57,238 bases of DNA from NCBI GenBank assembly GCA_001723645.1, contig MDLC01000015.1, positions 1 through 57,238 on the forward strand, written 5' to 3'. The DNA is from Candidatus Endobugula sertula. GTDB lineage: Bacteria; Pseudomonadota; Gammaproteobacteria; Pseudomonadales; Cellvibrionaceae. The number at the start of each line of letters is the position of its first letter. Positions within the stretch are counted from its first letter, which is position 1. This document shows, piece by piece, positions 42,475-57,238 of this stretch. The notes beneath the pieces are model-generated. The model saw only the letters and a list, made by a program, of their open reading frames with translations. It was not told the DNA's origin and did no database searches. A program made the translations under genes and the position numbers.

Positions 42475-43135
42475 AAAAAGTACGTATAGGTTTACCCCTT
42501 TGCACTTCGTAGTGCTGTGACCATCGTGAACGTTCGAGTGATTTATTTTCTAAATCGTTTTGATTTGCCAGCAATAGTTGCAAACGCTCTAATGCGATTT
42601 GCTTATTTCTATGCTGGGAACGGTCTGATTCAACACGCACTTTTAAACCAGTTGTGCGATGAGTGATACGAACCGCACTATTGGTCTTATTGACATGTTG
42701 ACCACCTGGCCCTTTTGACCGCATAGTCTCCATATCGACTTCCTTCACTAATTCGTTGAACGTCTTCATACTATTACTAGGCATTGATAATGTCGCAATA
42801 CCCACGAACCAGTTGATGCGTTTATGCTTAGGTCGATAAGGGCTTTCACCTTGCCATTTAATAGTTCCTTGCCATTTATGAGCAAACCCATCAACCCCTT
42901 TGCCTTCTAAGCGGATCAATATCGACAAAAATGCATCAGGCTCAATCAATGTCTGATTTCGCAATAACTTATCAAATGCTAAGCTCTCAACGATTTCAGC
43001 AGACAGATTTTCTCTGTATGCTTCATCCAATAGAACTCGACTGAGCTGAGCAATAACCCAGCCGCATTCTTTAGGGCCTTGACCAGCCGTCAGTTGTAGC
43101 CATACAACTGACGATTTTTTATGCTTTGTTTCCAT
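42452..43135 (-). CDS. prfH: Peptide chain release factor H (PrfH)
   Basis: 227 aa. The RF-like GGQ domain reads [20 protein letters not shown] without a codon-recognition domain of RF1/2 size. Lies 2 nt downstream of rtcB, as in known rtcB2-prfH pairs. Confidence 0.88.
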
Positions 43136-43137
43136 AT

Positions 43138-44373
43138 TTATGTTCTCCGTGTTTTATAGGTGAGTAATGGTTTAAAGGTTGCAACGATATCAACCATACC
43201 GGCTTCCGCTAAGTCGCTCACCACCTGACTAATATTTTTGTAGGCTTGTGGGGCCTCTTCATAAAGTAGATCTCTTTGCTTACAAATAACACGGCTACCT
43301 AGTGAAGTTTTCTCTAAGTCTTTTACCTTAAAACGCTTTTCTAAGCGGCCTCGAGCATCACTGCGTTTCCATTTTCGGCCTGCACCATGTGCTAGAGAAA
43401 AACCTCCAAGAGCCAATGCACTTAGCTCATTAACTCTAGGTTTAACAAGATAACTTAAACTACCTCGAGATCCAGGTATCATTACTAAGCCCTTATTCGT
43501 TGGGCTTGCACCTTTACGGTGTATCCAATAACGTCTTTCTGAATCGATGTCTGACTTTGCGGCTGATTTTGCAGAAAGCCCCATTAGCTCAGTCTCAACA
43601 CTTGATAAAGCTTCAACCATATTGTGGGTGACATCGAACAAATAGCGTTGCTTTGTCTTTAACTGCTGACAAAAACGTTCTGCAATAAGTTCTCGATTTG
43701 CTTCAGCCCAACGGATAGCGTAATTGTGACGTTTTTGATACTGTTCATACTGATATTCATCTTGTATGGTTTCTAATGATTTTGAACCTAGGTTATCAAC
43801 ATGATCGCGAAGTATTTTTTGCCCTAAACCTCTAGAGCCGCTATGTACGAGTAAAAACACATGCTTTTTATCAATACCTAATCCATCAAATACATCACTA
43901 TCAATAATCTCATGAATCTGTTGCAATTCAGCAAAGTGATTATCGCCACCTATTGTTCCTAACTTGTGATGCTCTGTTAATGAAAAATCACCTTCAATTA
44001 TTAGACTGCGATCGCCCAACCATTCTTCCCTATTGCCATTCCATAGTTCATCAAGCCCAACAAGTTGTTTTTCCCATTTGTCTAATTTGACCTTTCTGGT
44101 CGGAATATCTAATTGCCATAAACCCATGCCACAACCAATATCACTACCCACCATATGGGGGTAGATACAGTTTTCCGTTACAAAAGCGGCGCCAATGGGT
44201 TGCCCTTTTCCTGGGTGTAGATCTGGCATACCAATACCGATACGCATACCCGGTAATTCCATTGTTTTTTTCAGCTGCGTAATGGCAGCGTCTTCTAACC
44301 AATTTTTGTCAGAGCTAATAATGCTCGTTCGACGATCCTCAGCTGTTTCGATATTTTTAAATAAAGTACTCAT
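43138..44373 (-). CDS. rtcB: RNA 3'-phosphate/5'-OH ligase RtcB (PrfH-associated type)
   Basis: [35 protein letters not shown] and HGAGR motifs. 411 aa. Confidence 0.93.
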
Positions 44374-44978: not shown

Positions 44979-46241
44979 CTATTGAGGAGCTATCTTATAC
45001 TGTGCCATATACCGCTTAATACTACCCAAACGTAACCGACGAATTTTCTCTGCTAATTTAAGGCCTTCATAGCCTTCACTTAGTAATGGCTTGATATTGG
45101 TATCTATAGCAACCTGGTTGTATTCGATTAACAATTGAGATTGAGGGTAATCTCTTTGCTCTAATCCTAAACGACCCCTAGCATCCGCTTCACAGGCTTG
45201 CGCAAAGTAACGTACACGTTCTGGTCGCCTGAACCCATCTAGTGCTTCCAATAGCTTTAATACCGATTTGGGACGCATTTCTAATAACTTATGACAACGT
45301 AAATGATGCTCTGACACTAGTTTTGCCAAGGTGCGAAAGTCTTTCGGTACTTTATAACACTCACATACTTTCTCAACTAAAGGTACACCTTTAATTTCAT
45401 GGCGAATATGACGAGGCCACTCTTCTTCAGGGGTAAGACCTTTACCCAAATCATGCATTAGTGCAGCCCAGGTCACGATTAGATCATCAAAACGCTCTCT
45501 GGCAATGTCCACGACCATCATCACATGATCACCCGTATCCACTTCTGGGTGATGCTGTGGGGGTTGCGGAACACCAAATAAACAGTCTAATTCTGGCATT
45601 AAAACCTCCAATGCACCACAGGCACGGAGCACTCGGAAAAACTCACTGGGCCGAGGCTCGGTTAATGCTCGAGACATTTCCTTCCAAACACGTTCCGGTG
45701 TTAATTCAGCAAGCTCGCCATTGTTAACCAAGTGCTTCATTAATTCTAATGTATTGGGATGCACTTGAAAATCTAACGTGGCATAACGTGCAGCAAAACG
45801 GGCTACTCTTAATACTCTCAATGGGTCATCAGAGAATGATTCTGAAACATGTCGTAAGACTTTATTATTTAAATCGGCTCTACCGTTAAACGGATCAACA
45901 TATTTACCTTCTAATGTCAGCGCAATGGCATTAATCGTAAGGTCTCTCCGAGATAGATCTTCTTCAAGTGTAACCTCGGGGCTAAAATCACAAACAAAGC
46001 CAGTGTGCCCCTTACCTGATTTTCTTTCAGTACGAGCGAGAGCATATTCATCCTTAGTTTCTGGGTGTAAAAAACAGGGAAAGTCGTTACCTATTTGTTG
46101 ATAGCCTTGCTCTATAAGCATTTCTGGAGTCGCACCGATGACTACCCAGTCATGATCTGCAACTGGGCGACCTAATAGCTTATCGCGTACCGCTCCACCG
46201 ACTAAATAAGCCTGAACACCAGTATTCTGTATATTTTCCAT
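44979..46241 (-). CDS. cca: Multifunctional CCA-adding enzyme (class II nucleotidyltransferase with HD domain)
   Basis: YLVGGAVRDKLLGRP..D.DWVV, ARTERK and RDLTINA, plus a C-terminal HD-domain region (LMHDLGK). 420 aa, like E. coli Cca. Confidence 0.92.
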   Translation of the reverse strand: MENIQNTGVQAYLVGGAVRDKLLGRPVADHDWVVIGATPEMLIEQGYQQIGNDFPCFLHPETKDEYALARTERKSGKGHTGFVCDFSPEVTLEEDLSRRDLTINAIALTLEGKYVDPFNGRADLNNKVLRHVSESFSDDPLRVLRVARFAARYATLDFQVHPNTLELMKHLVNNGELAELTPERVWKEMSRALTEPRPSEFFRVLRACGALEVLMPELDCLFGVPQPPQHHPEVDTGDHVMMVVDIARERFDDLIVTWAALMHDLGKGLTPEEEWPRHIRHEIKGVPLVEKVCECYKVPKDFRTLAKLVSEHHLRCHKLLEMRPKSVLKLLEALDGFRRPERVRYFAQACEADARGRLGLEQRDYPQSQLLIEYNQVAIDTNIKPLLSEGYEGLKLAEKIRRLRLGSIKRYMAQYKIAPQ

Positions 46242-46987: not shown

Positions 46988-47023
46988 GTTATACTTCTGA
47001 TAGTTTTTTCATATGTAAAGGGT

Positions 47024-47048
47024 AAAACCGCCAGCAAGCTGACGGTTA
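47024..47048 (-). terminator. Probable terminator after the SPFH gene
   Basis: aaccgccag-caag-ctgacggtt hairpin (8 of 9 bp), followed on the minus strand by a short TTTT run. Confidence 0.5.
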
Positions 47049-47052
47049 TCGG

Positions 47053-48207
47053 TTAAGCCTTTTTAGGGGCTAGAGTTACAAGCTCGTTAAGCACACCGCC
47101 TAAACCACCGTAAACAGAAATCTTATCGATTTGACCGGTAATTTTTTCGAGTGCTTCTAACTCTTTCAAGCGAAGCAATACTGGATTATTTTCCATCATC
47201 TTAGCAGTATTATGTAACGAACGCATAGCTTGAGTTTCCTCGCGGCGTTTGATCAAGTTAGCTTCAGCTTCTTTTTGTGCTTCAACCACTTGATTCAAGA
47301 TTTGCTTCATATCACCCGGCAAGATAATGTCTTTAACACCAACATTGACCAGCTCAATACCATAGTTAGCTAATTTTTCGCGAGTCGCTTGGGTAATCAC
47401 TGTGTTAAGTGTATCTTTATCTTCCAACAAAGTATCCAGTGATTGTGTACCCACCGCTTCACGCAGGCTTAACTGCAGCTCGCGATAGATAAAACCAGCA
47501 TAATCATTCACTTTTAAAGCGACGATTTCTGGATCTTTCACTTTATAGCTAGCGCTTAAGTTAATACGCAGGCTCACACGATCCTTTGTTAAAATTTTTT
47601 GACCACTTACCTCAACAGCTTGTAAGCGTAGATCTAATAGCTTAACACCAACAGAACGATTGTATTTCCAGAAGCCATAATTTCCAGGCTTTAAAATACT
47701 CTCGAGCTTACCATTAACGTTTAGAAGGCCGACGTGTTCATCTGGCACTTCTGCGTAAAGAATGGCATTAACTACTTCTCGGCTTTGACCTACTGTTAGG
47801 CCTCGACCTAGTAGATTAATCAACGACTTATCGATTTGGTAGTTCTCACTGATATCAATAATATCAACACGAACATCCTCTACATTTTTCCAAACGGTTA
47901 AAACAGAACCTGGTGCGAGCACACTAGCCAGCTTGTTATCTCGATACAGCAAACCGACTTCAGAGTCTTTAAGGTTAAACTGTTCAAGATAAGGTGCTAA
48001 TTTATCTGCATATTGAGTCATTAGGAACTGTGCTTTACGGTTCTTAAATAACACGTCGGTAATGTCATGAACGTCTACTGCCACTCGGCCTTGTGGGGTC
48101 GATACTCGGTGTCGACCTGGACCTAGTACACGTTTAAATTGATCACGCACATACAATAGAGCACGTTGATGATCAGCAATATCAATTGTCTTCCAGAAAA
48201 TCATCAT
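47053..48207 (-). CDS. SPFH/band-7 domain protein (slipin-like)
   Basis: 384 aa. A central SPFH-type region and a C-terminal coiled-coil QKEAEANLIKRREETQA. Confidence 0.85.
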   Translation of the reverse strand: MMIFWKTIDIADHQRALLYVRDQFKRVLGPGRHRVSTPQGRVAVDVHDITDVLFKNRKAQFLMTQYADKLAPYLEQFNLKDSEVGLLYRDNKLASVLAPGSVLTVWKNVEDVRVDIIDISENYQIDKSLINLLGRGLTVGQSREVVNAILYAEVPDEHVGLLNVNGKLESILKPGNYGFWKYNRSVGVKLLDLRLQAVEVSGQKILTKDRVSLRINLSASYKVKDPEIVALKVNDYAGFIYRELQLSLREAVGTQSLDTLLEDKDTLNTVITQATREKLANYGIELVNVGVKDIILPGDMKQILNQVVEAQKEAEANLIKRREETQAMRSLHNTAKMMENNPVLLRLKELEALEKITGQIDKISVYGGLGGVLNELVTLAPKKA

Positions 48208-48494
48208 TTTCTCCTTATAGCTGGCATCATAAAGATGCCTTTTATGAATAGGCGAGGCCCACTTGGTTTTAACGCGGTCGATAATTTGAATAGCCTAGGT
48301 CACTTATCTCAGCGGCTTGTTGCGCGGTTATCTTCACCCTGAAGAACAACATCCGTGTATGCTTTCCTTAGCGAATAACCGTGGTTCAAGCATAAAATAA
48401 TGACGTAAACGATTAACCCATCATCAACGGTATTAAAACCATTGCTAGCTAATCTATAGAAGCCTTAACCAGCAGTGAGCCTCTAGTGTTTTAT

Positions 48495-48541
48495 TGGTAA
48501 CAAACCAAGGGGATTCGAACCCCAGACTTTCGTCTTACCCA
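48495..48541 (-). other. tRNA 3'-half-like fragment (T-arm plus ..ACCA), no 5' half
   Basis: The minus strand reads TGGGTAAGACGAAAGTCTGGGGTTCGAATCCCCTTGGTTTGTTACCA. It directly abuts the CCA end of tRNA-Met. No complementary 5' acceptor strand was found. Confidence 0.45.
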
Positions 48542-48618
48542 TGGTGTTTTTGGCAGGATTCGAACCTGCTACCCATCGATTATGAATCGATTGCTCTACC
48601 CGTATGAGCTACAAAAAC
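48542..48618 (-). tRNA. tRNA with CAT anticodon (Met, or Ile if lysidine-modified), CCA encoded
   Basis: Hand fold: GTTTTTG TA GCTC ATACGGGTA GAGC A ATCGA TTCATAA TCGAT GGGTA GCAGG TTCGAAT CCTGC CAAAAAC A CCA. Confidence 0.85.
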
Positions 48619-48984
48619 CTATGCGTTGGAGGCATAGTTGTTTAGCGGGCTAGCGAATCGGTACACAGGACATTAAAAATGGCTGTGCCAGCCTGGCATA
48701 CGGAACCAGAGACACTGTTTCGTTAACTTGCGCATAAACATCGGTATGGAGTTAGACGCCAAAAAAGCGCCAAACTCCAAATACTTATCATCGAATATCG
48801 GAAACAACACTAAGGTGTTTGCCTTTTTCCTTATCGTACTCGGCAATTTCCATTTCTCCGTCAATTGGCGCTATTGTTACCAAATGATCAATTCGTGAAT
48901 ACATCTCTCCATGGTAGGCTTTTAGCTCGCCTTTTCCATTTTCATATCCTCATTGCTTATGAACTAAAGCCAATACAGTTTGGT

Positions 48985-49536
48985 TTAGCCACTCTTCCAT
49001 TTTCGTTGACTAGAAAATTGTTTAGTCAGATAGTCCATTTGATCGGCAATAATATGCCGATTAGTTAAATACAAATATTCAAAAGGATTCGGCGTAAACG
49101 GAACCGCTAATAAAAGCATATTTGCTTGTTCCGGTGTACGATTGCCTTTTGCATGATTGCAGCGCTTGCAGGCGGCCACGACATTTGTCCAACTATCGGC
49201 TCCACCTTGAGCACGCGGTACCACATGGTCACGGGTTAGTTCCTGTGCAAAAAATATTTGGCCGCAATATAAGCACACATAATTATCTCGACGAAATAAC
49301 ATAGCATTGCTAAATGAACGGACCTTCATACTTTTTCCGTGACCTTTAGTCGCAATCACTGGAGAAATATCAAGCATAGAACGTTCGCCATCGCGGTTGT
49401 AACCGCCCCGCATTAAGGCACCTTGTTCACCCATTTCCCACAGCACAAGTTTTTTGCTGTAAAGGGTTGTAGCAGCCTCCACTAATAGCCAATGCATCGG
49501 CATACCAGAGGGATTTAGGCGTAGTACTTTTTTCAT
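48985..49536 (-). CDS. HNH endonuclease
   Basis: CLYCG...TRDHVVPRAQGG..SW.NVVAACKRCNHAKGNRTP is a classic HNH-Cys4 motif. 183 aa. Confidence 0.88.
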   Translation of the reverse strand: MKKVLRLNPSGMPMHWLLVEAATTLYSKKLVLWEMGEQGALMRGGYNRDGERSMLDISPVIATKGHGKSMKVRSFSNAMLFRRDNYVCLYCGQIFFAQELTRDHVVPRAQGGADSWTNVVAACKRCNHAKGNRTPEQANMLLLAVPFTPNPFEYLYLTNRHIIADQMDYLTKQFSSQRKWKSG

Positions 49537-49578
49537 TACCTTGCGCCAAAAAATAAATCCATATGTGAATACACCAGC

Positions 49579-49875
49579 CTAATAGTATTTAATAAAGTTC
49601 ATACCATCAGCCGAGCGATAACCATTTGTTTCTAACAAATGGATCATCGCTTGTCGTTTTTGTAATTGCCTTTCTGTAACAACTACATAAAGCGGCATCA
49701 ATTGTTGATGGAGTGCCCATGTCAACAATTGGTGCCCATTTTCGCGACCAACTAAATAGTGATCCACATATAGCTGGGTTACACTATTTTTAAGCAATTG
49801 CTTTTTTGCTTTTCTTGCATCGTCACAGAAAACATCTGCGAAACGGTTTTGATTTTTGCTAACAGATAAACGCAT
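49579..49875 (-). CDS. Hypothetical protein inside the tRNA array
   Basis: 98-aa ORF, 33 nt downstream of tRNA-His. No family recognised. Confidence 0.45.
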   Translation of the reverse strand: MRLSVSKNQNRFADVFCDDARKAKKQLLKNSVTQLYVDHYLVGRENGHQLLTWALHQQLMPLYVVVTERQLQKRQAMIHLLETNGYRSADGMNFIKYY

Positions 49876-49908
49876 AATCCCTCCTGTGAGCTAGTGAGAA
49901 TATTTAGG

Positions 49909-49980
49909 GGTGACCGATGGGACTCGAACCCATATATACTTGAGCCACATTCAAGCGCATTACCGATCTGCCACGGCCAC
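49909..49980 (-). tRNA. tRNA-His (GTG), no encoded CCA (CCT) and no G-1
   Basis: Hand fold: GTGGCCG TG GCAG ATCGGTA ATGC G CTTGA ATGTGGC TCAAG TATAT ATGGG TTCGAGT CCCAT CGGTCAC C. Followed by CCT, and position -1 is T. Confidence 0.75.
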
Positions 49981-50011
49981 ACCTAAATATTCTGGGTAAT
50001 AAGAAATAATT

Positions 50012-50086
50012 TGGTCCGCCCGGTAGGATTTGAACCCACACCTGTCGGCTTAAAAGGCCGATGCGCTACCATTACGCCACGAACGG
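50012..50086 (-). tRNA. tRNA-Lys (TTT), CCA encoded
   Basis: Hand fold: CCGTTCG TG GCGT AATGGTA GCGC A TCGGC CTTTTAA GCCGA CAGGT GTGGG TTCAAAT CCTAC CGGGCGG A CCA. Confidence 0.85.
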
Positions 50087-50091
50087 AAAAT

Positions 50092-50170
50092 TGGCACCTG
50101 ACACAGGACTCGAACCTGCATCTCCCCGCTTCGTAGGCGGGTGCTCTAAATCCAATTGAGCTAATCAGGC
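50092..50170 (-). tRNA. tRNA-Arg (ACG), CCA encoded
   Basis: Hand fold: GCCTGAT TA GCTC AATTGGATTTA GAGC A CCCGC CTACGAA GCGGG GAGAT GCAGG TTCGAGT CCTGT GTCAGGT G CCA. Confidence 0.85.
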
Positions 50171-50176
50171 AAAATT

Positions 50177-50250
50177 TGGAGCCCAATACAGGACTCGAAC
50201 CTGTCTCTACTGCTTACAAGGCAGTTGCACAGCCGCTATGCCAATCGGGC
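50177..50250 (-). tRNA. tRNA-Thr (TGT), CCA encoded
   Basis: Hand fold: GCCCGAT TG GCAT AGCGGCT GTGC A ACTGC CTTGTAA GCAGT AGAG ACAGG TTCGAGT CCTGT ATTGGGC T CCA. Confidence 0.85.
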
Positions 50251-50290
50251 AAGTTAAGAAATTTTGTGAAATAAAAGACTGGAATCCTTT

Positions 50291-51487
50291 CTAGCCTTTT
50301 ACGTTGACGATTTGACGAAGCGTATGAACAACGTCAACAAGATCAGTTTGGTTATCCATAACATCATCAATTGGCTTATACGCCATGGGAATCTCATCGA
50401 TTACACCTTTGTCTTTACGGCATTCAATCCCCTCTGTTGCAGATACAAGATCACTTACAGAATAGGTTTTTGCAGCCGCAGTTCGACTTAGGCGACGTCC
50501 AGCGCCGTGAGAGCAAGAACAGAACGATTCTGATTCACCTTTACCACGAACAATAAAACTTTTATCGCCCATAGACCCAGGAATAATACCCAAATCATCT
50601 TTTCTTGCGCGGATAGCGCCTTTACGTGTAACCCATACGTTTTTACCAAAATGGTTTTCCTTTTCCACATAGTTATGATGACAATTGATGGCTTCTTGAG
50701 TGACCGCAAACGCTGGAAGATGTTTACGTAGCTCCATCATCACTGCATTCATCATATGTGTACGATTCAATGCAGCATAATCTTGCCCCCAAGATACTGC
50801 TTCGATGTAATCATCGTAATATTCTGATCCTTCAGATAGATAAGCCAAATCTTTATCGGGCAAATGGATCATCCATTTTTCCATTTCACGTTTCGCGATC
50901 TCGATAAAATGCATTCCAATTTTATTACCGATACCACGGCTTCCTGAATGCAGCATAATCCATACGTCTTGATTTTCATCCAAACACAACTCGATAAAGT
51001 GATTCCCTGAACCTAGCGTACCTAACTGCTTTGCAAAGGCATCATACTTAATACGTTTACTTATTTGAGGATGCTTCTCGAAGATAGTACTTAAACGCAT
51101 TGAAATATCATGGCCACCTGCAATTTTAGGGTCACGATGTTTTCCGCCTGCCCCCAAAGGCACAACAGATTCAATACGACTGCGAATAGCTTTCAAATTA
51201 TCAGGCAGATCTTTTGCCTTTAGCGATAGACGCACGGCATTCATACCACAACCAATATCCACGCCTACTGCAGCAGGGATAATCGCTTTATCGGTCGCGA
51301 TTACTGAACCCACAGTCGCTCCTTTACCCAAATGAACATCTGGCATTGCTGCTACATGTTTATAGACAAAGGGTAAATTCGCTACTCGGCTTAATTGTGC
51401 CTGTGTGTTGTAATCAATATCATCTGTCCAGATTTTTACAGGCACACGCTGATCTTTATGCGTTGCCAATACTTTTTTAATGGTCAT
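50291..51487 (-). CDS. rtcB: RNA ligase RtcB embedded in the tRNA array
   Basis: MPDVHLGKG, GVDIGCGM, GSGNHFIELC, HSGSRGIGN, HNY and HGAGR motifs. 398 aa. Lies 30 nt downstream of an oversized tRNA-like gene and 40 nt upstream of tRNA-Thr. Confidence 0.95.
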   Translation of the reverse strand: MTIKKVLATHKDQRVPVKIWTDDIDYNTQAQLSRVANLPFVYKHVAAMPDVHLGKGATVGSVIATDKAIIPAAVGVDIGCGMNAVRLSLKAKDLPDNLKAIRSRIESVVPLGAGGKHRDPKIAGGHDISMRLSTIFEKHPQISKRIKYDAFAKQLGTLGSGNHFIELCLDENQDVWIMLHSGSRGIGNKIGMHFIEIAKREMEKWMIHLPDKDLAYLSEGSEYYDDYIEAVSWGQDYAALNRTHMMNAVMMELRKHLPAFAVTQEAINCHHNYVEKENHFGKNVWVTRKGAIRARKDDLGIIPGSMGDKSFIVRGKGESESFCSCSHGAGRRLSRTAAAKTYSVSDLVSATEGIECRKDKGVIDEIPMAYKPIDDVMDNQTDLVDVVHTLRQIVNVKG

Positions 51488-51517
51488 AATTGCCTCCTTT
51501 AGTTATTTTATAATGAC

Positions 51518-51658
51518 TGGTTGGAGGTATAGGAATAACCTAAGCGCGTCCTGCGCTTAGCCTTTCAGATGCAAAGCAGTTCAAAATGCTCCCGGCATTT
51601 TGTCGAACCCATCTCGCCGGGGCAAAAACCCGGTGCTCAGCCACTAAGCCAACCTCCA
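51518..51658 (-). tRNA. Oversized (141 nt) tRNA-like gene with a 74-nt T-loop. The 7-nt anticodon loop reads TTTTTGC (UUU). CCA encoded.
   Basis: Hand fold: TGGAGGT TG GCT TAGTGGCTG AGC A CCGGG TTTTTGC CCCGG CGAG ATGGG [TTCGA CAAAATGC-CGGGA-GCATTTTG AACTGCTTTGCATCTGAAAGG CTAAGCGC-AGGAC-GCGCTTAG GTTATT] CCTAT ACCTCCA A CCA. Acceptor pairs 7/7 and T-stem 5/5. Confidence 0.6.
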
Positions 51659-51668
51659 GTTAAGTAAT

Positions 51669-51818
51669 TGGAGCGATGTATGGGAATCGAACCCATTTCC
51701 TCTGCTTGGACTGCTTTGCAGGAGCAAAAGCAGGACATCATGTAGTGGTGGTTGCGAAGCAATTGTGTATAGGGATATACACAACAACGCAGGTACCTCA
51801 CCATTCGGTTAACATCGC
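51669..51818 (-). tRNA. Oversized (150 nt) tRNA-like gene with an ~80-90 nt insertion in the anticodon arm. Anticodon undetermined. CCA encoded.
   Basis: 5' part: GCGATGT TA ACC GAATGGTGA GGT A CCTGC. 3' part: GCAGA GGAA ATGGG TTCGATT CCCAT ACATCGC T CCA. Acceptor pairs 7/7. The insert holds the hairpins TTGTGTATA-TCCC-TATACACAA and CTGCTTTTGC-TCCT-GCAAAGCAG. Confidence 0.55.
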
Positions 51819-51824
51819 ATAAAT

Positions 51825-51902
51825 TGGTCTGGGTGGTAGGGTTTGAACCTACGACCTTTGGGTTCCAAACCCAACACGCTAACCAAACTGCGCTACACCC
51901 AG
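51825..51902 (-). tRNA. tRNA-Pro (TGG), CCA encoded
   Basis: Hand fold: CTGGGTG TA GCGC AGTTTGGTTA GCGT G TTGGG TTTGGAA CCCAA AGGTC GTAGG TTCAAAC CCTAC CACCCAG A CCA. Confidence 0.9.
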
Positions 51903-51910
51903 AATAAATT

Positions 51911-52052
51911 TGGCGGTTCATACCACTTCCCATAAATAGAGAGGGAACCGGTGATCTCTCGGCTTATTCACATGAATGTAATGTATGCCGATTTTGCAGG
52001 AGCAAAAATCGGTGACAACCGAGCGCATTAAACCTGACTATGCTAATGAACC
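51911..52052 (-). tRNA. Oversized (142 nt) tRNA-Asp(GTC)-like gene with a 49-nt insertion after the anticodon loop and an expanded T-loop. CCA encoded.
   Basis: Hand fold: GGTTCAT TA GCAT AGTCAGGTTTA ATGC G CTCGG TTGTCAC [CGATTTTTGC-TCCT-GCAAAATCGG CATACATTACATTCATGTGAATAAG] CCGAG AGATC ACCGG [TTCCC TCTCTATTTAT GGGAA] GTGGT ATGAACC G CCA. Acceptor pairs 7/7. Confidence 0.6.
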
Positions 52053-52057
52053 TTAAT

Positions 52058-52133
52058 TGGTGGAGACCGTGGGAATCGAACCCACCACACAGTGCTTGCA
52101 AAGCATCGTCGCCCCCTTGATACATGGGCCCCC
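52058..52133 (-). tRNA. tRNA-Ala (TGC) with G3:U70, a poorly paired D-arm, CCA encoded
   Basis: Hand fold: GGGGGCC CA TGTATCAAGGGGGCGAC GATGC TTTGCAA GCACT GTGTG GTGGG TTCGATT CCCAC GGTCTCC A CCA. The G3-T70 wobble is present. No convincing D-stem. Confidence 0.7.
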
Positions 52134-52138
52134 AATTT

Positions 52139-52293
52139 TGGAGTGCGAGGCTGGGTGAAAGAAGTGTTGTTAGCAAAGCACTGCTTTGTACTTCTTGAAC
52201 GCCCAAAACTTATAATTTTTGGCCGGCCCGCTTGCGGCAAACCAGCGTATACGGAGGTTGCAGCTCCGCGCATCGTCTCTCTGCCACTCGCAC
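52139..52293 (-). tRNA. Oversized (155 nt) tRNA-Cys(GCA)-like gene with an 87-nt T-loop. U73, CCA encoded.
   Basis: Hand fold: GTGCGAG TG GCAG AGAGACG ATGC G CGGAG CTGCAAC CTCCG TATAC GCTGG [87 nt, including AAGAAGT..ACTTCTT and AAAGC-AGT-GCTTT hairpins] CCAGC CTCGCAC T CCA. Acceptor, anticodon and T stems all pair perfectly. Confidence 0.6.
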
Positions 52294-52310
52294 AAAATAG
52301 TTATTCAGAT

Positions 52311-52384
52311 TGGCAACAGCGTCAGGATTCGAACCTGGAATACCGGAGTCAAAGTCCAGTGTGTTACCGTTACACCACGCTGCT
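52311..52384 (-). tRNA. tRNA-Gln (TTG), G73, CCA encoded
   Basis: Hand fold: AGCAGCG TG GTGT AACGGTA ACAC A CTGGA CTTTGAC TCCGG TATT CCAGG TTCGAAT CCTGA CGCTGTT G CCA. One T-stem mismatch. Confidence 0.8.
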
Positions 52385-52392
52385 ATATTTTT

Positions 52393-52481
52393 TGGTCGTG
52401 AGGAGCGGGTTTGAACTCTCGCAGCACTCTTGTTACTGTGCGGATTAGCAATCCGCTGCCTTACCACTCGGCCACATTTCC
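52393..52481 (-). tRNA. tRNA-Ser(GCT)-like, probably defective (acceptor and T stems do not pair)
   Basis: Type II D-arm GCCGAGTGGTAAGGC, anticodon arm GCGGA TTGCTAA TCCGC, and a long variable arm. The 5' strand GGAAATG pairs at only 3 of 7 positions with CCTCACG, and the T-stem GAGAG/CCGCT is poor. Confidence 0.5.
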
Positions 52482-52487
52482 AATAAT

Positions 52488-52629
52488 TGGTTGCGGTGGC
52501 TGGAATAACCAAAGTACTTTCTGTACTTTGCTCTGCGAGTGCTTCGCTGCTCAAAATGCTCCAGGCATTTTGTCGAACCAACAAGTTCGGGCATATGAAA
52601 CCCGCGAGTAGCCATAGCTCAACACCGCT
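52488..52629 (-). tRNA. Oversized (142 nt) initiator-like tRNA (CAT) with the same 74-nt T-loop architecture as 51518..51658. CCA encoded.
   Basis: Hand fold: AGCGGTG TT GAGC TATGGCT A CTC G CGGGT TTCATAT GCCCG AACTT GTTGG [TTCGA CAAAATGC-CTGGA-GCATTTTG AGCAGCGAAGCACTCGCAGAG CAAAGTAC-AGAAA-GTACTTTG GTTATT] CCAGC CACCGCA A CCA. There is a 1:72 A-A mismatch, and the 3' end CCGCAACCA resembles remembered E. coli tRNA-fMet. Confidence 0.6.
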
Positions 52630-52640
52630 TCAAATAGTAG

Positions 52641-52715
52641 TAGGCCAAGGCGGATTCGAACCGCTCCTTATCCCGCTTATGAGGCGGGTGCATTCACCGA
52701 TTATGCTATTGGCCT
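52641..52715 (-). tRNA. tRNA with CAT anticodon (Met/Ile2 type), no CCA encoded
   Basis: Hand fold: AGGCCAA TA GCAT AATCGGTGA ATGC A CCCGC CTCATAA GCGGG ATAAGG AGCGG TTCGAAT CCGCC TTGGCCT A. Followed by CTA. Confidence 0.75.
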
Positions 52716-52725
52716 AATTTAAAAT

Positions 52726-52809
52726 TGGTGTAGGCAGATGGAGTTGAACCACCAAAGCTTTCGCGACCGGGTTACAACCGGCTAGAGTCACCACGTCTCT
52801 TCTGTGTAC
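52726..52809 (-). tRNA. tRNA-Tyr (GTA), type II, with two central acceptor mismatches. CCA encoded.
   Basis: Hand fold: GTACACA GA AGAG ACGTGGTGA CTCT A GCCGG TTGTAAC CCGGT CGCGAAAGCTTT GGTGG TTCAACT CCATC TGCCTAC A CCA. An alternative 5' strand GCAGGTA (to 52813) pairs 6/7 but leaves a 6-nt connector. Confidence 0.65.
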
Positions 52810-52818
52810 CTGCATAAT

Positions 52819-52895
52819 TGGCTCCGGCAGTTGGGATCGAACCAACGAACTCCTGATTAACAGTCAGGCGCATTACCACTCTGCTTCACACCGGA
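52819..52895 (-). tRNA. tRNA-Asn (GTT), CCA encoded
   Basis: Hand fold: TCCGGTG TGAAGCAGAGTGGTAATGC G CCTGA CTGTTAA TCAGG AGTTC GTTGG TTCGATC CCAAC TGCCGGA G CCA. The D-stem is shifted (GCA/TGC). Confidence 0.8.
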
Positions 52896-52902
52896 ATAAA
52901 AT

Positions 52903-52979
52903 TGGTACAGTGAGCTGGACTCGAACCAGCACTCTCCTGATCTTCAATCAAGCGCTCTACCAATTGGAGCTATCACTGC
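52903..52979 (-). tRNA. tRNA-Phe (GAA), CCA encoded
   Basis: Hand fold: GCAGTGA TA GCTC CAATTGGTA GAGC G CTTGA TTGAAGA TCAGG AGAGT GCTGG TTCGAGT CCAGC TCACTGT A CCA. Confidence 0.9.
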
Positions 52980-52987
52980 CGTTTTAT

Positions 52988-53173
52988 TTGGCACGCGGTG
53001 AAAGAAAAGTATCAAACCTCATCGAGGAGTGGAACGACAGCAATAAAATTGATCCTGAACGGCTAGAAGACCAGCTCACACCAGAGCGTTATAGGGCGCT
53101 ATTTGATACCCTCGTAGATTGGAATGACTATCTTGACAACCATGCACCGGATATCAAGGAGTTGTTGCTATGA
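52988..53173 (+). CDS. Small hypothetical protein upstream of mobC (start uncertain, TTG)
   Basis: The part of track ORF 52910..53173 that lies outside tRNA-Phe. Its stop overlaps the mobC-like start (ATGA). Confidence 0.3.
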   Translation: MARGERKVSNLIEEWNDSNKIDPERLEDQLTPERYRALFDTLVDWNDYLDNHAPDIKELLL

Positions 53174-53598
53174 ACAATTCTGCGAACCTCAAACAAGCGT
53201 TTGAAACCTCTAGCGCTCAAAATACCATCAAACCTAAAAAGCAGTATGCACGAACATTTTCTATGCGTCTTACGGATGGTGAACGTGATTTCTTAGACCA
53301 GCATAGCGGCTCTTTGTCATGGTCTGGCTATATCCGCAAGCGTGTCTTTGGTGAAAAAGCCGAAAAACGTCGCCCTGTAAAACGAGCTGTGCCAGATACG
53401 GCGCTACTAGCTCAAGTTCTCGCAGAGCTAGGCGCTTCCCGTTTATCTGCCAATATCAACCAACTGGCAAAACACGCCAATATGGGAACGCTGGACGTTT
53501 CGCCTGAAACTGAGCGCGAGATTGAAAGCGCCTGCCGTGAAATCCATACCCTGCGTATGCTGTTGATTGCTGCCTTGGGTGTTCAGCCAGAGGATTAG
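53170..53598 (+). CDS. MobC-like relaxosome accessory protein
   Basis: RHH-like N-terminal part (FSMRLTDGERDFL) and the ELGASRLSANINQLAKHANMG motif typical of MobC-family mobilisation proteins. Immediately upstream of the relaxase. Confidence 0.8.
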   Translation: MNNSANLKQAFETSSAQNTIKPKKQYARTFSMRLTDGERDFLDQHSGSLSWSGYIRKRVFGEKAEKRRPVKRAVPDTALLAQVLAELGASRLSANINQLAKHANMGTLDVSPETEREIESACREIHTLRMLLIAALGVQPED

Positions 53599-53600
53599 AG

Positions 53601-54734
53601 ATGATATTGCACGGCAATCAACGCGGCGGCGCTAAAGATATGGCGCTTCATCTTATGAAAGATGAAAACGAACATATTGAGGTGTACGAGATCAGAGGCT
53701 TTGCTTCTGAAAACCTCATAGGGGCTTTTAACGAAGCCTATGCCATTAGCCGCGCCACACGTTGTAAGCAATTCCTATACTCTCTAAGCTTAAACCCGCC
53801 ACCGGATGAGCAGGTATCTACTGAAAGCTTTAAAAAAGCCATTAATCAGGCTGAACAACGGCTAGGGCTGGATAATCAGCCCCGCGTTATTGTTTTCCAT
53901 GAAAAGCAGGGGCGTAGGCATTGCCATGTTGTCTGGTCACGAATTGATAGCTCTGAATTAAAGGCCATACGGCTTCCTTTTACCAAGTTGAAATTACGGG
54001 AGTTATCCCGCGAATTATTCCTAGAGCATGGCTGGGCTATGCCCGAAGGTTTGCGGGATTCCCACAACCGTGACCCGCGTAATTTTACCTTGGCAGAATG
54101 GCAGCAAGCCAAACGCACAGGCAAGAACCCCAAGCAGGTTAAGGCCGTATTCCAAGAATGCTGGAATATTAGCGATACACAAAGCGCTTTTGCCAATGCC
54201 CTAAAAGAGCATGGTTATATCTTGGCGCGTGGTGATCGGCGCGGCTTTGTTGCGGTGGATTTTAAAGGTGAAGCTTTCGCCGTGTCTAAATGGGTTGGCA
54301 TTAAAGCAAAAGACGTTAAAGCCAAACTCAACGAAGCGGATAAGTTGCTTCCATTTGCAGACGCTAAAGCACACATGGCAAATGCTATGGCGGCAACATT
54401 GCAAAAGGCTCAAGAGCAGCAAAATACCGCTATTCGTGAGCGCCAAAATCAGCTTGAGGCAAGACTTGAAGCCATGGCCATGCAACATAAGCAAGAACGC
54501 CAAAATCTGGAACAAACACAAGATATACGCCGTATTGAAGAAACCAAAACCCGCCAAGCCAGATACAGCAAAGGCTTACGAGGCCTATGGCAACGCCTGG
54601 ATAAGTTCAGGGAACAGGGGCAAAAGCATATCACTCAAGACATACAACAATACCGCGAAATCCAACAACATAAGCGGGATACGTTCAGCATGACAGACCC
54701 ACAAAAACATAGGGGTAGAGGGCTTGAGCGTTAA
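53601..54734 (+). CDS. Relaxase / mobilisation nuclease (MobA/VirD2-type)
   Basis: N-terminal relaxase domain with HCHVVWSRI (His-triad region), then a long Q/E-rich coiled-coil tail. 377 aa. Confidence 0.88.
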   Translation: MILHGNQRGGAKDMALHLMKDENEHIEVYEIRGFASENLIGAFNEAYAISRATRCKQFLYSLSLNPPPDEQVSTESFKKAINQAEQRLGLDNQPRVIVFHEKQGRRHCHVVWSRIDSSELKAIRLPFTKLKLRELSRELFLEHGWAMPEGLRDSHNRDPRNFTLAEWQQAKRTGKNPKQVKAVFQECWNISDTQSAFANALKEHGYILARGDRRGFVAVDFKGEAFAVSKWVGIKAKDVKAKLNEADKLLPFADAKAHMANAMAATLQKAQEQQNTAIRERQNQLEARLEAMAMQHKQERQNLEQTQDIRRIEETKTRQARYSKGLRGLWQRLDKFREQGQKHITQDIQQYREIQQHKRDTFSMTDPQKHRGRGLER

Positions 54735-54822
54735 TTAATTGGTTAAATTTGACTCAAACAGCAAAAAAGTTGTATGCTTAAACATATATGTGTTTATACG
54801 CTTATTTATAGAGGTAACTATC

Positions 54823-55059
54823 ATGACACGTTGGAGTCTTGTTGTTAATAACGAAACCGATCAAAGCTTACGTGCTTTTCTGGGTCAGAAAGGTGCGAAA
54901 AAAGGTGATTTATCCAAATTCGTAGAAGAAGCCGTACTGGATAAATTACTGGCTGAAACAGCAGAAATGATTAAAGAGCGTAATGCTGCCGATGATCAAA
55001 TGAATATTATGAGTACAGTAAATGAAGCATTAGAGGCTGTACGTGCGCATAGTTCTTGA
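54823..55059 (+). CDS. Ribbon-helix-helix antitoxin
   Basis: An RBS gaggt precedes ATG 54823. 78 aa with an MTRWSLVVNNETDQSLRAFL beta-strand start. Its end overlaps the PIN gene. Confidence 0.7.
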   Translation: MTRWSLVVNNETDQSLRAFLGQKGAKKGDLSKFVEEAVLDKLLAETAEMIKERNAADDQMNIMSTVNEALEAVRAHSS

Positions 55060-55459
55060 TACAGGCATTTTAGTTAGCGCATTAATCACCAAAGATACGC
55101 CGCCTGATTGGTTGTACCAATCATGGTGTAAACAAGCCTTTACGCTTGTCACCTCTGAAGAGCAACTGGAAGAAATAAAGCGTGTACTGTCTTATAAAAA
55201 GCTCGAACGTTTTATCAATCAGTCCGAAGCACAAATTCTGCTAGAAGCTCTCCACCGAAAAGCAGATATTGCAACAGACCTACCTTTTGTTGAACTATCA
55301 CCTGACCCTGATGATAACCGTATTATTGCCACGGCGCTGGCTGGGCAAGCGGATTATCTGGTATCAGGCGATAAGGCGGATTTATTGAGCCTTGGCATGG
55401 CTCATGATATTCCCATTCTTACTGCTCGGCAGATGGCAGAACGCTTGAAACTGGGTTAA
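55043..55459 (+). CDS. PIN-domain toxin
   Basis: IVLDTGILVSALI (the first acidic residue), D...D in DPDDNRIIATA and SGD. 138 aa, GTG start. Confidence 0.8.
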   Translation: MRIVLDTGILVSALITKDTPPDWLYQSWCKQAFTLVTSEEQLEEIKRVLSYKKLERFINQSEAQILLEALHRKADIATDLPFVELSPDPDDNRIIATALAGQADYLVSGDKADLLSLGMAHDIPILTARQMAERLKLG

Positions 55460-55475
55460 ATAACAAAGCCATTTA

Positions 55476-56027
55476 TCAATTGAAAAAGTCTCGAATGTCC
55501 ATAATTGCACCTTTCCCGTTAAGGTGCTGGCGCATTTGATTTAGCTTTTCATAAATTGTGACAGTATATATTCCGTTAAAGCTGCCATATATCTTATGGT
55601 CTTCCCCCGTTTCACAATATTTAGGGTTATCCAATGTGTGAAAAGTTCTACAGTGAAATGGCCTTACCTCATATATCGTACATTCGCCTTCATCACCAAG
55701 AAAAGGACAAGGGCTAGTATGTCCGGTAGAAGCAATTAATTGTCTGGGCTTTCTCTTTCGACGGGTCTCTTCCTCTATAAGTTTTGCTTCTAATTCAGTG
55801 ATCGTGACATCAATTTTGCAGCAGTGAGAACATCCTTTCGAGCAAACAGAGAAGGTTTTAACAAAGTCACCATAATCTTCTAAATATTTGTAAATATCTT
55901 TTAGCTTCAAAATAGCTCTTTTATTTTTAGATTGAAGTGTGCTCAGTAACTTCTTGCACTTAATAGCTAATTCATTAGGGATAGCAGGTAATACCGTTTC
56001 TTCACTTTTATCTTTAAACTTTATCAT
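55476..56027 (-). CDS. YkgJ-family cysteine-cluster (Zn/Fe-chelating) protein
   Basis: CSKGCSHCCK (CxxCxxCC) plus a second C-rich block CPFLGDEGECTIYEVRPFHCR. Confidence 0.8.
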   Translation of the reverse strand: MIKFKDKSEETVLPAIPNELAIKCKKLLSTLQSKNKRAILKLKDIYKYLEDYGDFVKTFSVCSKGCSHCCKIDVTITELEAKLIEEETRRKRKPRQLIASTGHTSPCPFLGDEGECTIYEVRPFHCRTFHTLDNPKYCETGEDHKIYGSFNGIYTVTIYEKLNQMRQHLNGKGAIMDIRDFFN

Positions 56028-56147
56028 TATACGACCTCTGATAACCTCTACGATTAAATCATGATGATATTGATGCCAAAAAAGTGGCTAGTTACACCTT
56101 AGCTGAGAGTAACAAAATAAGTGAACAAAGACGACGATAAGAGGAAC

Positions 56148-56336
56148 CTAAAATGAGGTATTAGGTACTTTTTTAATATAATCACGAACGGCGATGAGTA
56201 TAGGGCTTAGATCTTCGTCTTTGCTATGAATCATCTTCAAAACCGTATCCTCGCTATCGGCTAGATCACAAAGCATAGAGCCATACATTTTCATGTAGCT
56301 GCGGTATTTGCGTTTAAGCTGTGCTGGTGTTGTCAT
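56148..56336 (-). CDS. Small hypothetical protein downstream of the resolvase
   Basis: ORF from an internal ATG (MTTPAQLKRKY...). Overlaps the resolvase 3' end. Confidence 0.35.
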   Translation of the reverse strand: MTTPAQLKRKYRSYMKMYGSMLCDLADSEDTVLKMIHSKDEDLSPILIAVRDYIKKVPNTSF

Positions 56337-56925
56337 TGCTGGAAGTCCTTTTTTTCTGAGGGGTATATTCATTTAAGATGCGGCTGAGAGTGCGGGTAGA
56401 GATGCCAAATTCTTTGGCTATCTCTTTATGAGTGTATTGCTGTTGGGCTTTCATTTTGAGGAGTGCGCGGGTTTTACGCTGTGATAGTTTACGCCGCCGC
56501 CCAAGGTGTTTGCCGTTTTGTCGGGCGATTTCCAACCCTGCTTTGGTTCGCTCTGAAATAATATCGCGCTCAAGCTCTGCAAAGGCATTGCGGATGGTAT
56601 ACATGCACTTACCCATCGGGGTTGTTGTGTCGATAGCTTCCGTCAAACATTTAAACTCAAGGCCGCGTTGCTGAAATAAATCTAATACGTCTAGTGCGTT
56701 TCTAACCGAACGGAAGGCACGGTCAAATTTCCAAATCACCAGCACATCACCATACTGCATAGACGCAATAGCGCTGTCGAAGCCTGGGCGTGATTTAGCG
56801 ATAGCGGACACGCCCAAGTCTTCGAAGATATTATTCTGCTCACACCCTGCTAATATCAGGGCTTTGCGTTGTAGGTCTAAATTCTGTTCACTGGTGCTAA
56901 CCCGCGCATAACCAATCAAGGCCAT
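56314..56925 (-). CDS. Serine recombinase (resolvase/invertase family)
   Basis: MALIGYARVSTSEQNLDLQ (catalytic Ser), VWKFDRAFRS, and a C-terminal HTH HKEIAKEFGISTRTLSRIL. Confidence 0.92.
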   Translation of the reverse strand: MALIGYARVSTSEQNLDLQRKALILAGCEQNNIFEDLGVSAIAKSRPGFDSAIASMQYGDVLVIWKFDRAFRSVRNALDVLDLFQQRGLEFKCLTEAIDTTTPMGKCMYTIRNAFAELERDIISERTKAGLEIARQNGKHLGRRRKLSQRKTRALLKMKAQQQYTHKEIAKEFGISTRTLSRILNEYTPQKKRTSSNDNTSTA

Positions 56926-57238
56926 AAATCCTCCCATAAAATAATGTCTTCCCTATAACGGTAGACAAAACCGAACGTTTCTGTCTTATAGCCATAAGAT
57001 CACCCAGTCAATAAAAAAGAGAGAAAAAGGCGTTAAAAACGGGCGTAAACAGCCATTTTTTAAGCACAAAATAATCTTATGGAATTATGACGAAATCCTT
57101 CGATTGCGGCGGCTATTAATCTATTGATATTGCTTACTTTTTCTTGTTCTGTATGGGCAGATGCATATTCCACTCCAAGATGAACACCTTCTCCAATTGA
57201 AAATGATCACCCCCTGCGATTAAACGTGATCAGTCTCT

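Follow-up and report, generated by a model that had tools for sequence, protein, structure and literature searches.

Results

An initiator-type tRNA gene interrupted in its T-loop

We analyzed a contig of Candidatus Endobugula sertula of 57,238 nucleotides (nt) (MDLC01000015.1; hereafter the window), in which a chromosomal tRNA array on the minus strand (48495..52979) holds 12 uninterrupted tRNA genes called by ARAGORN, a tRNA-Ser(GCT) added by Rfam (52481..52393, minus strand) and five interrupted tRNA genes (fMet-like, Cys, Asp, Gly and Lys). The first of these, a tRNA(CAT) gene at 52629..52488 of the minus strand, is 142 nt long as encoded and carries a 67-nt insert (52572..52506; hereafter the module) after T-loop nucleotide A58. 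On the minus strand the gene reads AGCGGTG-TT-GAGC..CTC-G-CGGGT-TTCATAT-GCCCG-AACTT-GTTGG-TTCGA, then the 67-nt insert, then TT-CCAGC-CACCGCA-A-CCA, and inspection by eye finds the acceptor stem, D arm, anticodon arm and T stem in the correct order. Exon 1 (52573..52629, minus strand) supplies the 5' strand of the acceptor stem, the D arm, the anticodon arm (CGGGT-TTCATAT-GCCCG), the variable loop, the 5' strand of the T stem and T-loop nucleotides 54-58 (TTCGA), and exon 2 (52488..52505, minus strand) supplies T-loop nucleotides 59-60 (TT), the 3' strand of the T stem (CCAGC), the 3' strand of the acceptor stem (CACCGCA), A73 and an encoded CCA.

Neither ARAGORN nor Rfam calls a tRNA at 52629..52488 as encoded. 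Once 52572..52506 is deleted, ARAGORN calls a 75-nt tRNA-Met(CAT) with A1 opposite A72, and a brute-force scan that tried every single deletion of 8-159 nt within the gap containing this gene gave deletions of 65-68 nt at the T-loop as the sole solution. The initial annotation of this locus had described a T-loop interrupted by a 74-nt module; the interruption is there as encoded (TTCGA, 67 nt, then TT), and the length has to be corrected to 67 nt when the module is defined against uninterrupted orthologs, apart from an ambiguity of 1 nt (an A) at the junction. The minimum-free-energy fold of the 142-nt precursor does not predict the T stem, and we gave this fold no weight as evidence, since tRNAs fold poorly by this method.

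The initiator-like features first noted for this gene all hold up. The anticodon loop is TTCATAT, position 1 is unpaired with position 72 (A1xA72) once the insert is removed (ARAGORN), and the 3' end CACCGCAACCA is present and identical to E. coli tRNAfMet over CCGCAACCA. The anticodon stem is G-C rich, with one reservation: CGGGT/GCCCG contains three G-C pairs (28:42, 29:41 and 30:40), but the canonical G31:C39 is replaced by U.G, leaving two of the three strict initiator positions (29:41, 30:40, 31:39) as G:C, with G28:C42 supplying the third consecutive pair. The acceptor end of the tRNA without its insert has G2-C71, C3-G70 and G4-C69 as in E. coli tRNAfMet, together with A73, and its D stem (G10-A11-G12-C13 / ..C23-T24-C25) places a purine at 11 opposite a pyrimidine at 24 (A11:U24). 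Our reference tRNAs were confirmed at 100% identity in E. coli genomes, where the initiator is present in four copies per genome, the elongator Met in two and Ile2 in about two (annotated as tRNA-Met, tRNA-Met and tRNA-Ile, respectively); properly aligned, the window tRNA is closer to the initiator (67%) than to the elongator Met (47%) or Ile2 (51%), in agreement with the initial annotation.

The U.G at 31:39, which leaves the canonical G-C trio (29-31:39-41) incomplete, and an A in place of the usual C at position 1 might instead indicate an elongator tRNA-Met or a tRNA-Ile2(CAU) with a weak first pair. We regard this as quite unlikely, given the identity values, the tRNAfMet-like acceptor and 3' ends and A11:U24 described above, and because the array already carries two other CAT tRNAs (52715..52640 and 48618..48542) that are 1:72 paired, have C11:G24 (a pyrimidine at 11 opposite a purine at 24) and resemble Ile2 and the elongator Met, respectively. 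The anticodon arm CGGGT-TTCATAT-GCCCG also recurs exactly in four metagenomic tRNAs (L139, L141, L142 and L146) that likewise lack a 1:72 pair and lie in tRNA clusters, which suggests a recurrent accessory-initiator design. By these sequence features, the gene at 52629..52488 is an initiator-type tRNA, and the array is predicted to contain a full CAT trio of initiator-type, elongator-Met-like and Ile2-like tRNAs.

Orthologs lack the insert

Two loci of related Cellvibrionaceae (L123 and L124) carry the same tRNA, uninterrupted, at the same place in the array (..Asn, Tyr, Met, this tRNA, Ser..). Both are 92% identical to the window tRNA without its insert and share A1xA72, G2-C71, C3-G70, G4-C69 and A73, and their T-loop, TTCGATT, is exactly that predicted from removal of the insert. 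Exon 1 aligns to the orthologs (L123 9125-9199; L124 9072-9146) free of gaps, and the three-way alignment of the window, L123 and L124 contains a single clean 67-nt gap. Because L123 and L124 carry the uninterrupted tRNA with the predicted T-loop, the 67-nt insert is, by alignment, a lineage-specific insertion. No ortholog of this tRNA besides these two was found among the 153 loci that we compared, and a metagenome scan with the anticodon arm returned unrelated tRNAs only. The same pattern extends to the neighboring interrupted genes, as tRNA-Lys(TTT) has uninterrupted orthologs in L123, L124 and L125 and tRNA-Gly(TCC) has them in L123 and L124; most module-interrupted array tRNAs have an uninterrupted ortholog in another genome.

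The module belongs to a family of four-hairpin repeats

The insert folds as an independent chain of hairpins and, together with the 67-nt gap in the orthologs and a covariance-model match, this fold delimits the tRNA-sense module at 52506..52572 of the minus strand. From its 5' end the module consists of P1 (52572..52552; CAAAATGC-CTGGA-GCATTTTG), a P2 mini-hairpin GCGAAGC (within 52551..52539), P3 (52539..52531; CTC-GCA-GAG), P4 (52529..52511; AAAGTAC-AGAAA-GTACTTT) and the tail GGTTA (52510..52506), all on the minus strand. The window contains two occurrences of its 5' hairpin CAAAATGCCNGGAGCATTTTGA, where 0.01 would be expected, and the second of them is in the T-loop of tRNA-Lys(TTT) (51658..51518, minus strand). 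This gene carries a second module copy (51602..51536) and is split at the same T-loop position, so that the initial annotation was right to describe the T-loop module of the initiator-type gene as a shared one.

Both copies belong to a repeat family of 67-80 nt with four consecutive hairpins, P1-P4. Read 5' to 3', with a caret marking the insertion junction, the family consensus begins with (G)A^CA and continues with a P1 A/T-rich stem closed by a C-NGGA-G/R loop, a TGAAC linker, a variable P2, a short G/C stem P3 (CCC-GNA-GGG), a variable P4 stem that usually bears an NGGA loop and a short tail ending in A. The tRNA(CAT) copy has an exact P1, a P2 reduced to GCGAAGC, a P3 of CTC-GCA-GAG and a P4 loop of AGAAA (AGGAC in the Lys copy). 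A covariance model (R1) built on 18 seed modules from other genera, none of them from the window, matches 52508-52574 of the minus strand at 28.3 bits (E=1.6e-4) and the tRNA-Lys module at 37.1 bits (E=1.2e-6), and the four helices covary among the 18 seeds with a score of 0.251, compared with 0.080 for shuffled alignments and no more than 0.106 for slid partners. Exact copies of the P1 motif occur at more than 120 loci among the matches listed (one genome per species), against an estimated chance expectation of about 17; these matches lie mostly in Gammaproteobacteria, including Serratia, Brenneria, Pantoea, Pectobacterium, Pseudomonas, Bowmanella, Cellvibrio, Microbulbifer and many metagenome-assembled genomes, and are often multi-copy or tandem. 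As a side observation, the P1 and P4 loops (e.g., 52560-52564 and 51549-51553) carry GGAG, AGGA, GGGA or TGGA, which resemble Shine-Dalgarno sequences and CsrA/RsmA hairpins, in appearance only.

No Rfam family corresponds to the module, either in a scan of 47000-57238 at E<=1 or in a scan of 18 module loci at gathering thresholds that returned tRNAs only, and no small self-cleaving ribozyme (hammerhead, twister, pistol, hatchet or HDV-like) was matched by Rfam in 47000-57238 or in the 18 module loci. We considered whether the conserved motifs GA..GA and TGAAC mark a hammerhead, a K-turn or an attC site and rejected all three, as inspection by eye found the core motifs of these elements to be absent. 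Our literature search returned no paper that describes the module sequence or reports insertions into the T-loops of tRNAs from bacterial arrays.

The module family forms an internal block of some E. coli ERIC repeats

The family extends to E. coli, in which 687 of 5426 complete genomes carry the module in one to four copies each, none of them annotated. There it lies inside ERIC repeats as an extra block of ~77 base pairs (bp), with the junction GAGTGA^CAAATC...GAGTA and a flank that matches the ERIC2 primer for the polymerase chain reaction, a primer printed in 365 papers. The queA-acpH locus occurs in E. coli in three states: without ERIC, with ERIC alone (ATCC 25922) and with ERIC plus the module (strain 104). 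We take the module in ERIC to be the ~70-bp internal insertion of 'long' ERIC/IRU copies in enterobacteria; Sharp (1997, Mol Microbiol 24:1314) and Wilson and Sharp (2006) reportedly describe such internal insertions.

In other genera the module also occurs beside intact tRNA genes, in units made of a tRNA 3' end (L014 6895-7082 and L077 6540-6900, as well as L060, L069, L090, L047, L072 and L099). These units consist of the 5' strand of a T stem with TTCGA, the module, and AATCC followed by the T stem, the 3' strand of an acceptor stem and CCA; an intact tRNA gene lies immediately upstream of them, some occur in tandem, and in Pantoea the module is part of 166-168-bp tandem units beside an inverted tRNA 3' end. 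We considered and rejected the possibility that chromosomal matches in a T-loop context are housekeeping tRNAs with an interruption: when 139 module instances outside arrays were scanned with deletions, none gave a complete tRNA (0/139), and these matches are 3'-end fragments of tRNAs that follow intact genes.

Modules enter several tRNA loops in both orientations

Within tRNA arrays the module occupies several sites. In the window it lies in the T-loops of the initiator-type tRNA and tRNA-Lys in tRNA-sense orientation and in the anticodon loop of tRNA-Gly(TCC) (51669..51818, minus strand) in antisense. The Gly insert, a complete antisense module at 51786..51711 recognized by its fold and by uninterrupted orthologs, folds as its reverse complement into a full P1-P4 with a P4 loop of GGGA. 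In related arrays, sense modules split the T-loops of Phe (L123/L124), of Tyr, His and Phe (L125) and of Leu-TAG (L126), as well as Arg-ACG after nt 37 (L123/L124 and L125); an antisense module lies in Pro between nt 33 and 34 (L124/L125), and another module in the D-loop of His (L124). The window Lys module and the L125 His module are near-identical variants of one sequence. Read in module orientation, the junctions all fall 3' of ..(G/C)A (TTCGA^, ACGA^, TGGA^, TCCA^, GTGA^). We found neither target-site duplication nor terminal inverted repeats at the junctions, which show a 1-2-nt A/AC ambiguity only, and to this extent the family departs from a classical miniature inverted-repeat transposable element.

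Because the module occurs in both orientations, in many targets, and is present or absent at orthologous sites, the comparison points to a DNA-level mobile element and not to a classical intron, which would be expected to be transcribed in sense. The initial annotation had implied a module that is proper to this tRNA and processed from it, a view that the comparison does not support, as two orthologs lack the module and its family also occupies unrelated tRNAs and E. coli ERIC repeats in both orientations.

The array lies in an RNA-repair island

A gene for the RNA ligase RtcB lies inside the array (50291..51487, minus strand; Pfam RtcB E=1.7e-129), accompanied by an open reading frame (ORF) of ~98 amino acids (aa) with a weak cREC_REC match (49579-49875, minus strand) and a gene for a 183-aa HNH protein whose HNH domain is nearest to those of IscB and Cas9 (48985-49536, minus strand); all three are embedded among the tRNA genes. 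Using the array RtcB to find relatives, we compared 16 syntenic loci (L123-L138), in all of which this RtcB is kept within a syntenic island; its nearest relatives are chromosomal genes of Cellvibrionaceae with 91-93% identity. The conserved order comprises a tRNA array, RtcB, more tRNAs, the ~98-aa ORF, HNH, tRNA(CAT), an SPFH protein, a CCA-adding/repair enzyme and a second RtcB with PrfH, and the HNH gene and ~98-aa ORF are kept inside the arrays of most related genomes. In the window, the multifunctional CCA addition/repair enzyme (NCBIfam 609 bits) is encoded at 44979-46241 and the pair of PrfH (release factor H, 209 bits) and RtcB ('release_rtcB', 438 bits), a known ribosome rescue-and-repair module, at 42452-44373, both on the minus strand; this pair lies ~6 kb from the array RtcB and gives the window two RtcB paralogs. 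The locus thus has the composition of an L-array: a dense accessory tRNA cluster (48495-52979) with RtcB inside and a CCA repair enzyme and PrfH-RtcB adjoining.

This setting lends itself to the alternative that the module is a genuine intron in a bacterial tRNA, cut out by self-cleavage or by an endonuclease to leave 2',3'-cyclic phosphate and 5'-OH ends, which the array RtcB would then join into a working initiator. The position of RtcB inside the array and its retention in all syntenic islands would fit such a role, as would the CCA-adding/repair enzyme in the island, the exactness of the insertion, whose removal restores the ortholog T-loop TTCGATT, the uniform sense orientation of the T-loop copies, the covariation that keeps the module structure and the density of interrupted tRNAs, which make up five of about 18 in the window array. 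We nonetheless hold this alternative to be unlikely. The family also occurs in antisense in Gly and Pro, in a D-loop and in non-tRNA DNA (ERIC and intergenic repeats); no ribozyme or group I match appears at E<=1; the 5' junction coincides with the base of P1, and neither inspection nor the minimum-free-energy fold yields a bulge-helix-bulge. Moreover, four islands (L127, L128, L134 and L137) keep RtcB with few or no interrupted tRNAs, the interrupted genes carry defects (see below), and none of the 139 modules outside arrays lies in a complete tRNA. The linkage of rtcB to tRNA arrays has itself been described, in cyanobacteria, and the passages of that study on the linkage read it as repair (tRNA array study, 2021, PMC8421152).

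Several further features of the array were recorded alongside. An unrelated 'class B' element of ~82 nt, CCGCAAGCGG-NCCGG..TTATAA..CGTTCAAGAA..CAAAGCAnTGCTTTGCT..TTCTTTCA, splits the T-loop of tRNA-Cys(GCA) (52139-52293, minus strand; insert about 52156-52237) and that of tRNA-Glu(TTC) in L124 (about 8384-8538); its stems covary between the two copies, and no further copy was found among the 153 loci. The tRNA-Asp(GTC) gene (51911-52052, minus strand) contains a 49-nt insert (51963-52011) after nucleotide 38 with a lone antisense P1-type hairpin (CCGA-TTTTTGC-TCCT-GCAAAA-TCGG) and has an abnormally long T arm (ACCGG-TTCCCTCTCTATTTATGGGAAG-TGGT), and no single deletion restores a tRNA from it. 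The Ile2-like tRNA(CAT) (52640-52715, minus strand) ends in ..GGCCTAC without an encoded CCA; most array tRNAs encode CCA. A tRNA 3'-end fragment (48495-48527, minus strand; ..GGGGTTCGAATCCCC..TTACCA) directly follows tRNA-Met (48618..48542) without a matching 5' half.

Elsewhere the window has the gene content of an ordinary chromosome (cytochrome oxidase, Pol I, Pst). The stretch immediately upstream of the array (53170-56937), as read by eye, contains ORFs resembling MobC and relaxases, a toxin-antitoxin pair of the PIN type and a resolvase, and this side may be a separate integrated mobilizable element, because the island neighbors differ in related genomes. A phage origin was considered and rejected: the phage collection held no near match, with distant matches to rtcB only, the module is absent from viral contigs and the window is chromosomal. 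A plasmid origin was likewise set aside, as no match was found.

Interrupted genes carry defects

The window tRNA(CAT) has T14 and a C13.A22 mismatch where its orthologs have A14 and C13-G22; A14 is universal in tRNAs. The cloverleaf energy of the window tRNA is -23.5 kcal/mol, compared with -25.3 for the ortholog. Other interrupted genes depart further from their orthologs. The Lys gene has an aberrant anticodon loop (TTTTTGC, with G37 and C38, compared with CTTTTAA in three uninterrupted orthologs) alongside compensatory changes at 3:70 and 31:39; in every interrupted Arg-ACG gene the 31:39 pair is lost, and the L124 copy has in addition a 1-nt deletion and a T-stem mismatch; and the interrupted Phe gene of L124 is badly damaged, lacking a proper D/anticodon region. 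Divergence between interrupted and uninterrupted pairs was discarded as proof of decay, as the trend is in the expected direction with overlapping ranges. We conclude that the tRNA(CAT) gene is most likely an insertion-inactivated accessory copy of an initiator gene.

Discussion

Our findings favor, as the probable explanation of this locus, the insertion of a small mobile repeat into an accessory initiator-type tRNA gene, with the gene most likely inactivated as a result. The ancestral locus would have been an accessory initiator-type tRNA(CAU) gene in a chromosomal array within the RNA-repair island of a Cellvibrionaceae bacterium, into which, in this lineage, a 67-bp copy of a non-autonomous mobile repeat would have inserted between T-loop nucleotides 58 and 59. 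Movement would have taken place at the DNA level, perhaps through hairpins of single-stranded DNA, with a recombinase acting in trans. The gene would then most likely yield no working initiator tRNA and represent a young pseudogene, which would be dispensable because housekeeping initiator genes presumably lie elsewhere.

Several observations weigh against this explanation. T-loop insertions are in tRNA sense in all six tRNA species in which they occur and always fall directly after A58, and in 39 of 46 module instances the sense strand has a slight folding advantage over the antisense strand. Compensatory changes keep the module stems paired, even at what appears to be the same site (Arg-ACG, L123/L124 compared with L125), and because the stems stay paired in this way, some form of selection acts on module structure. 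No transposase or other mobilizing function was identified for the module, and an RtcB ligase gene lies within the array. The exons of the tRNA(CAT) are otherwise intact and, because their 8.0% divergence from the orthologs falls inside the range of uninterrupted tRNA pairs (3.9-12.2%), divergence does not demonstrate decay of this gene; its six substitutions are counted against two orthologs that are identical to each other. Lastly, nucleotides 59-60 are bulged out of the T-loop motif, and the spot after A58 could tolerate an excursion.

The last of these points bears on the possibility that the mature RNA retains the module as an additional arm after A58, giving a tRNA-like decoy or sensor for ribotoxins, or an RNA that binds a protein or the ribosome through its GGAG/AGGA loops, with no initiator role. 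Insertion exactly after nucleotide 58 and before the bulged pair would suit such an arm on general structural knowledge, the module folds independently as a hairpin chain, and the island is devoted to the repair of damaged translation RNA (PrfH-RtcB and the CCA repair enzyme); a precedent exists in the bacterial operons that combine RtcB with tRNA-like Y RNAs. The arrangement is not conserved, however, as the orthologs lack the module, and the same module enters many tRNAs and loops in either orientation, so that we consider an extra arm very unlikely. A further proposal, in which sense T-loop modules after A58 are functional, either excised with sealing by RtcB or kept as a decoy or sensor arm, and antisense and non-tRNA copies are failed landings, also seems improbable to us. 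Taken together, RNA-level rescue by RtcB-dependent splicing or a tolerated extra arm has a chance of roughly one in five.

In this light, what looks like an interrupted initiator tRNA is a single landing site among those of a mobile repeat family that has received little study, although it is common in Gammaproteobacteria, including E. coli, and that prefers the hairpin-loop sequences of tRNA genes. Accessory tRNA arrays linked to RtcB are hotspots or graveyards for these insertions, which affect about a quarter of the genes in the window array. The content of such arrays is under-counted because tRNA finders miss the interrupted genes, across which gene predictors call spurious ORFs. Should any sense copy turn out to be removed at the RNA level, it would constitute the first protein-dependent tRNA splicing in bacteria and a native substrate of a bacterial RtcB.

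The closest known counterparts of the module are the ERIC inserts of E. coli, with which it shares the P1-P4 order, the junction ..GA^CA.., the lack of target duplication and presence or absence at a single site; one covariance model matches both, at 67-80 bits for the E. coli ERIC inserts and 28-37 bits for the window copies. The window copy differs in its host (Cellvibrionaceae) and host site (a tRNA T-loop), in its P1 (AAAATGCC-NGGA-GCATTTT compared with AAATCTG(C/T)C-(C/G)GGA-(A/G)CAG(A/T)TTT in ERIC), in its shorter P2 and P3 and in a P4 loop, AGAAA, without GGA.

Comparison with introns reveals greater distance. Group I introns occur in bacterial tRNA-Leu(UAA) and in the tRNA-fMet of some cyanobacteria, and the module resembles them as a structured element that interrupts a bacterial tRNA gene, with one known initiator case, and is sporadic among relatives. 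In contrast to group I introns, which exceed 200 nt, lie in the anticodon loop, possess a P1-P9 ribozyme core and never occur in antisense, the module measures 67 nt, lies in a T-loop, has no Rfam match and has antisense relatives. Archaeal non-canonical introns, defined by a bulge-helix-bulge, cut by EndA and joined by RtcB, offer a second parallel, as a short insert is possible in a T-loop and RtcB is nearby; unlike in these introns, no helix joins the module junctions, one of which is at the base of P1 and the other after the P4 tail, and the module also occurs outside tRNAs and in both orientations. We know of no splicing endonuclease in these bacteria, in which no genome-wide search for EndA was made.

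Among mobile elements, the Rickettsia palindromic elements, which are inserted in tmRNA and RNase P RNA genes (Ogata et al. 2002, summarised in PMC2229807), resemble the module, as it too is short, non-autonomous and hairpin-forming and lies inside a structured RNA gene with its flanks preserved. The two have no sequence relationship, and the Rickettsia elements are larger and thought to be tolerated in the mature RNA, whereas the module targets a tRNA loop, where it may or may not be tolerated. The array itself is reminiscent of the cyanobacterial tRNA arrays (PMC8421152), in that both are clusters of about 18 or more accessory tRNA genes, some of them pseudogenes, that adjoin genes of RNA processing and repair including rtcB. 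The passages on the cyanobacterial arrays do not mention loop insertions, whereas the array of Candidatus Endobugula sertula is a hotspot for a mobile repeat.

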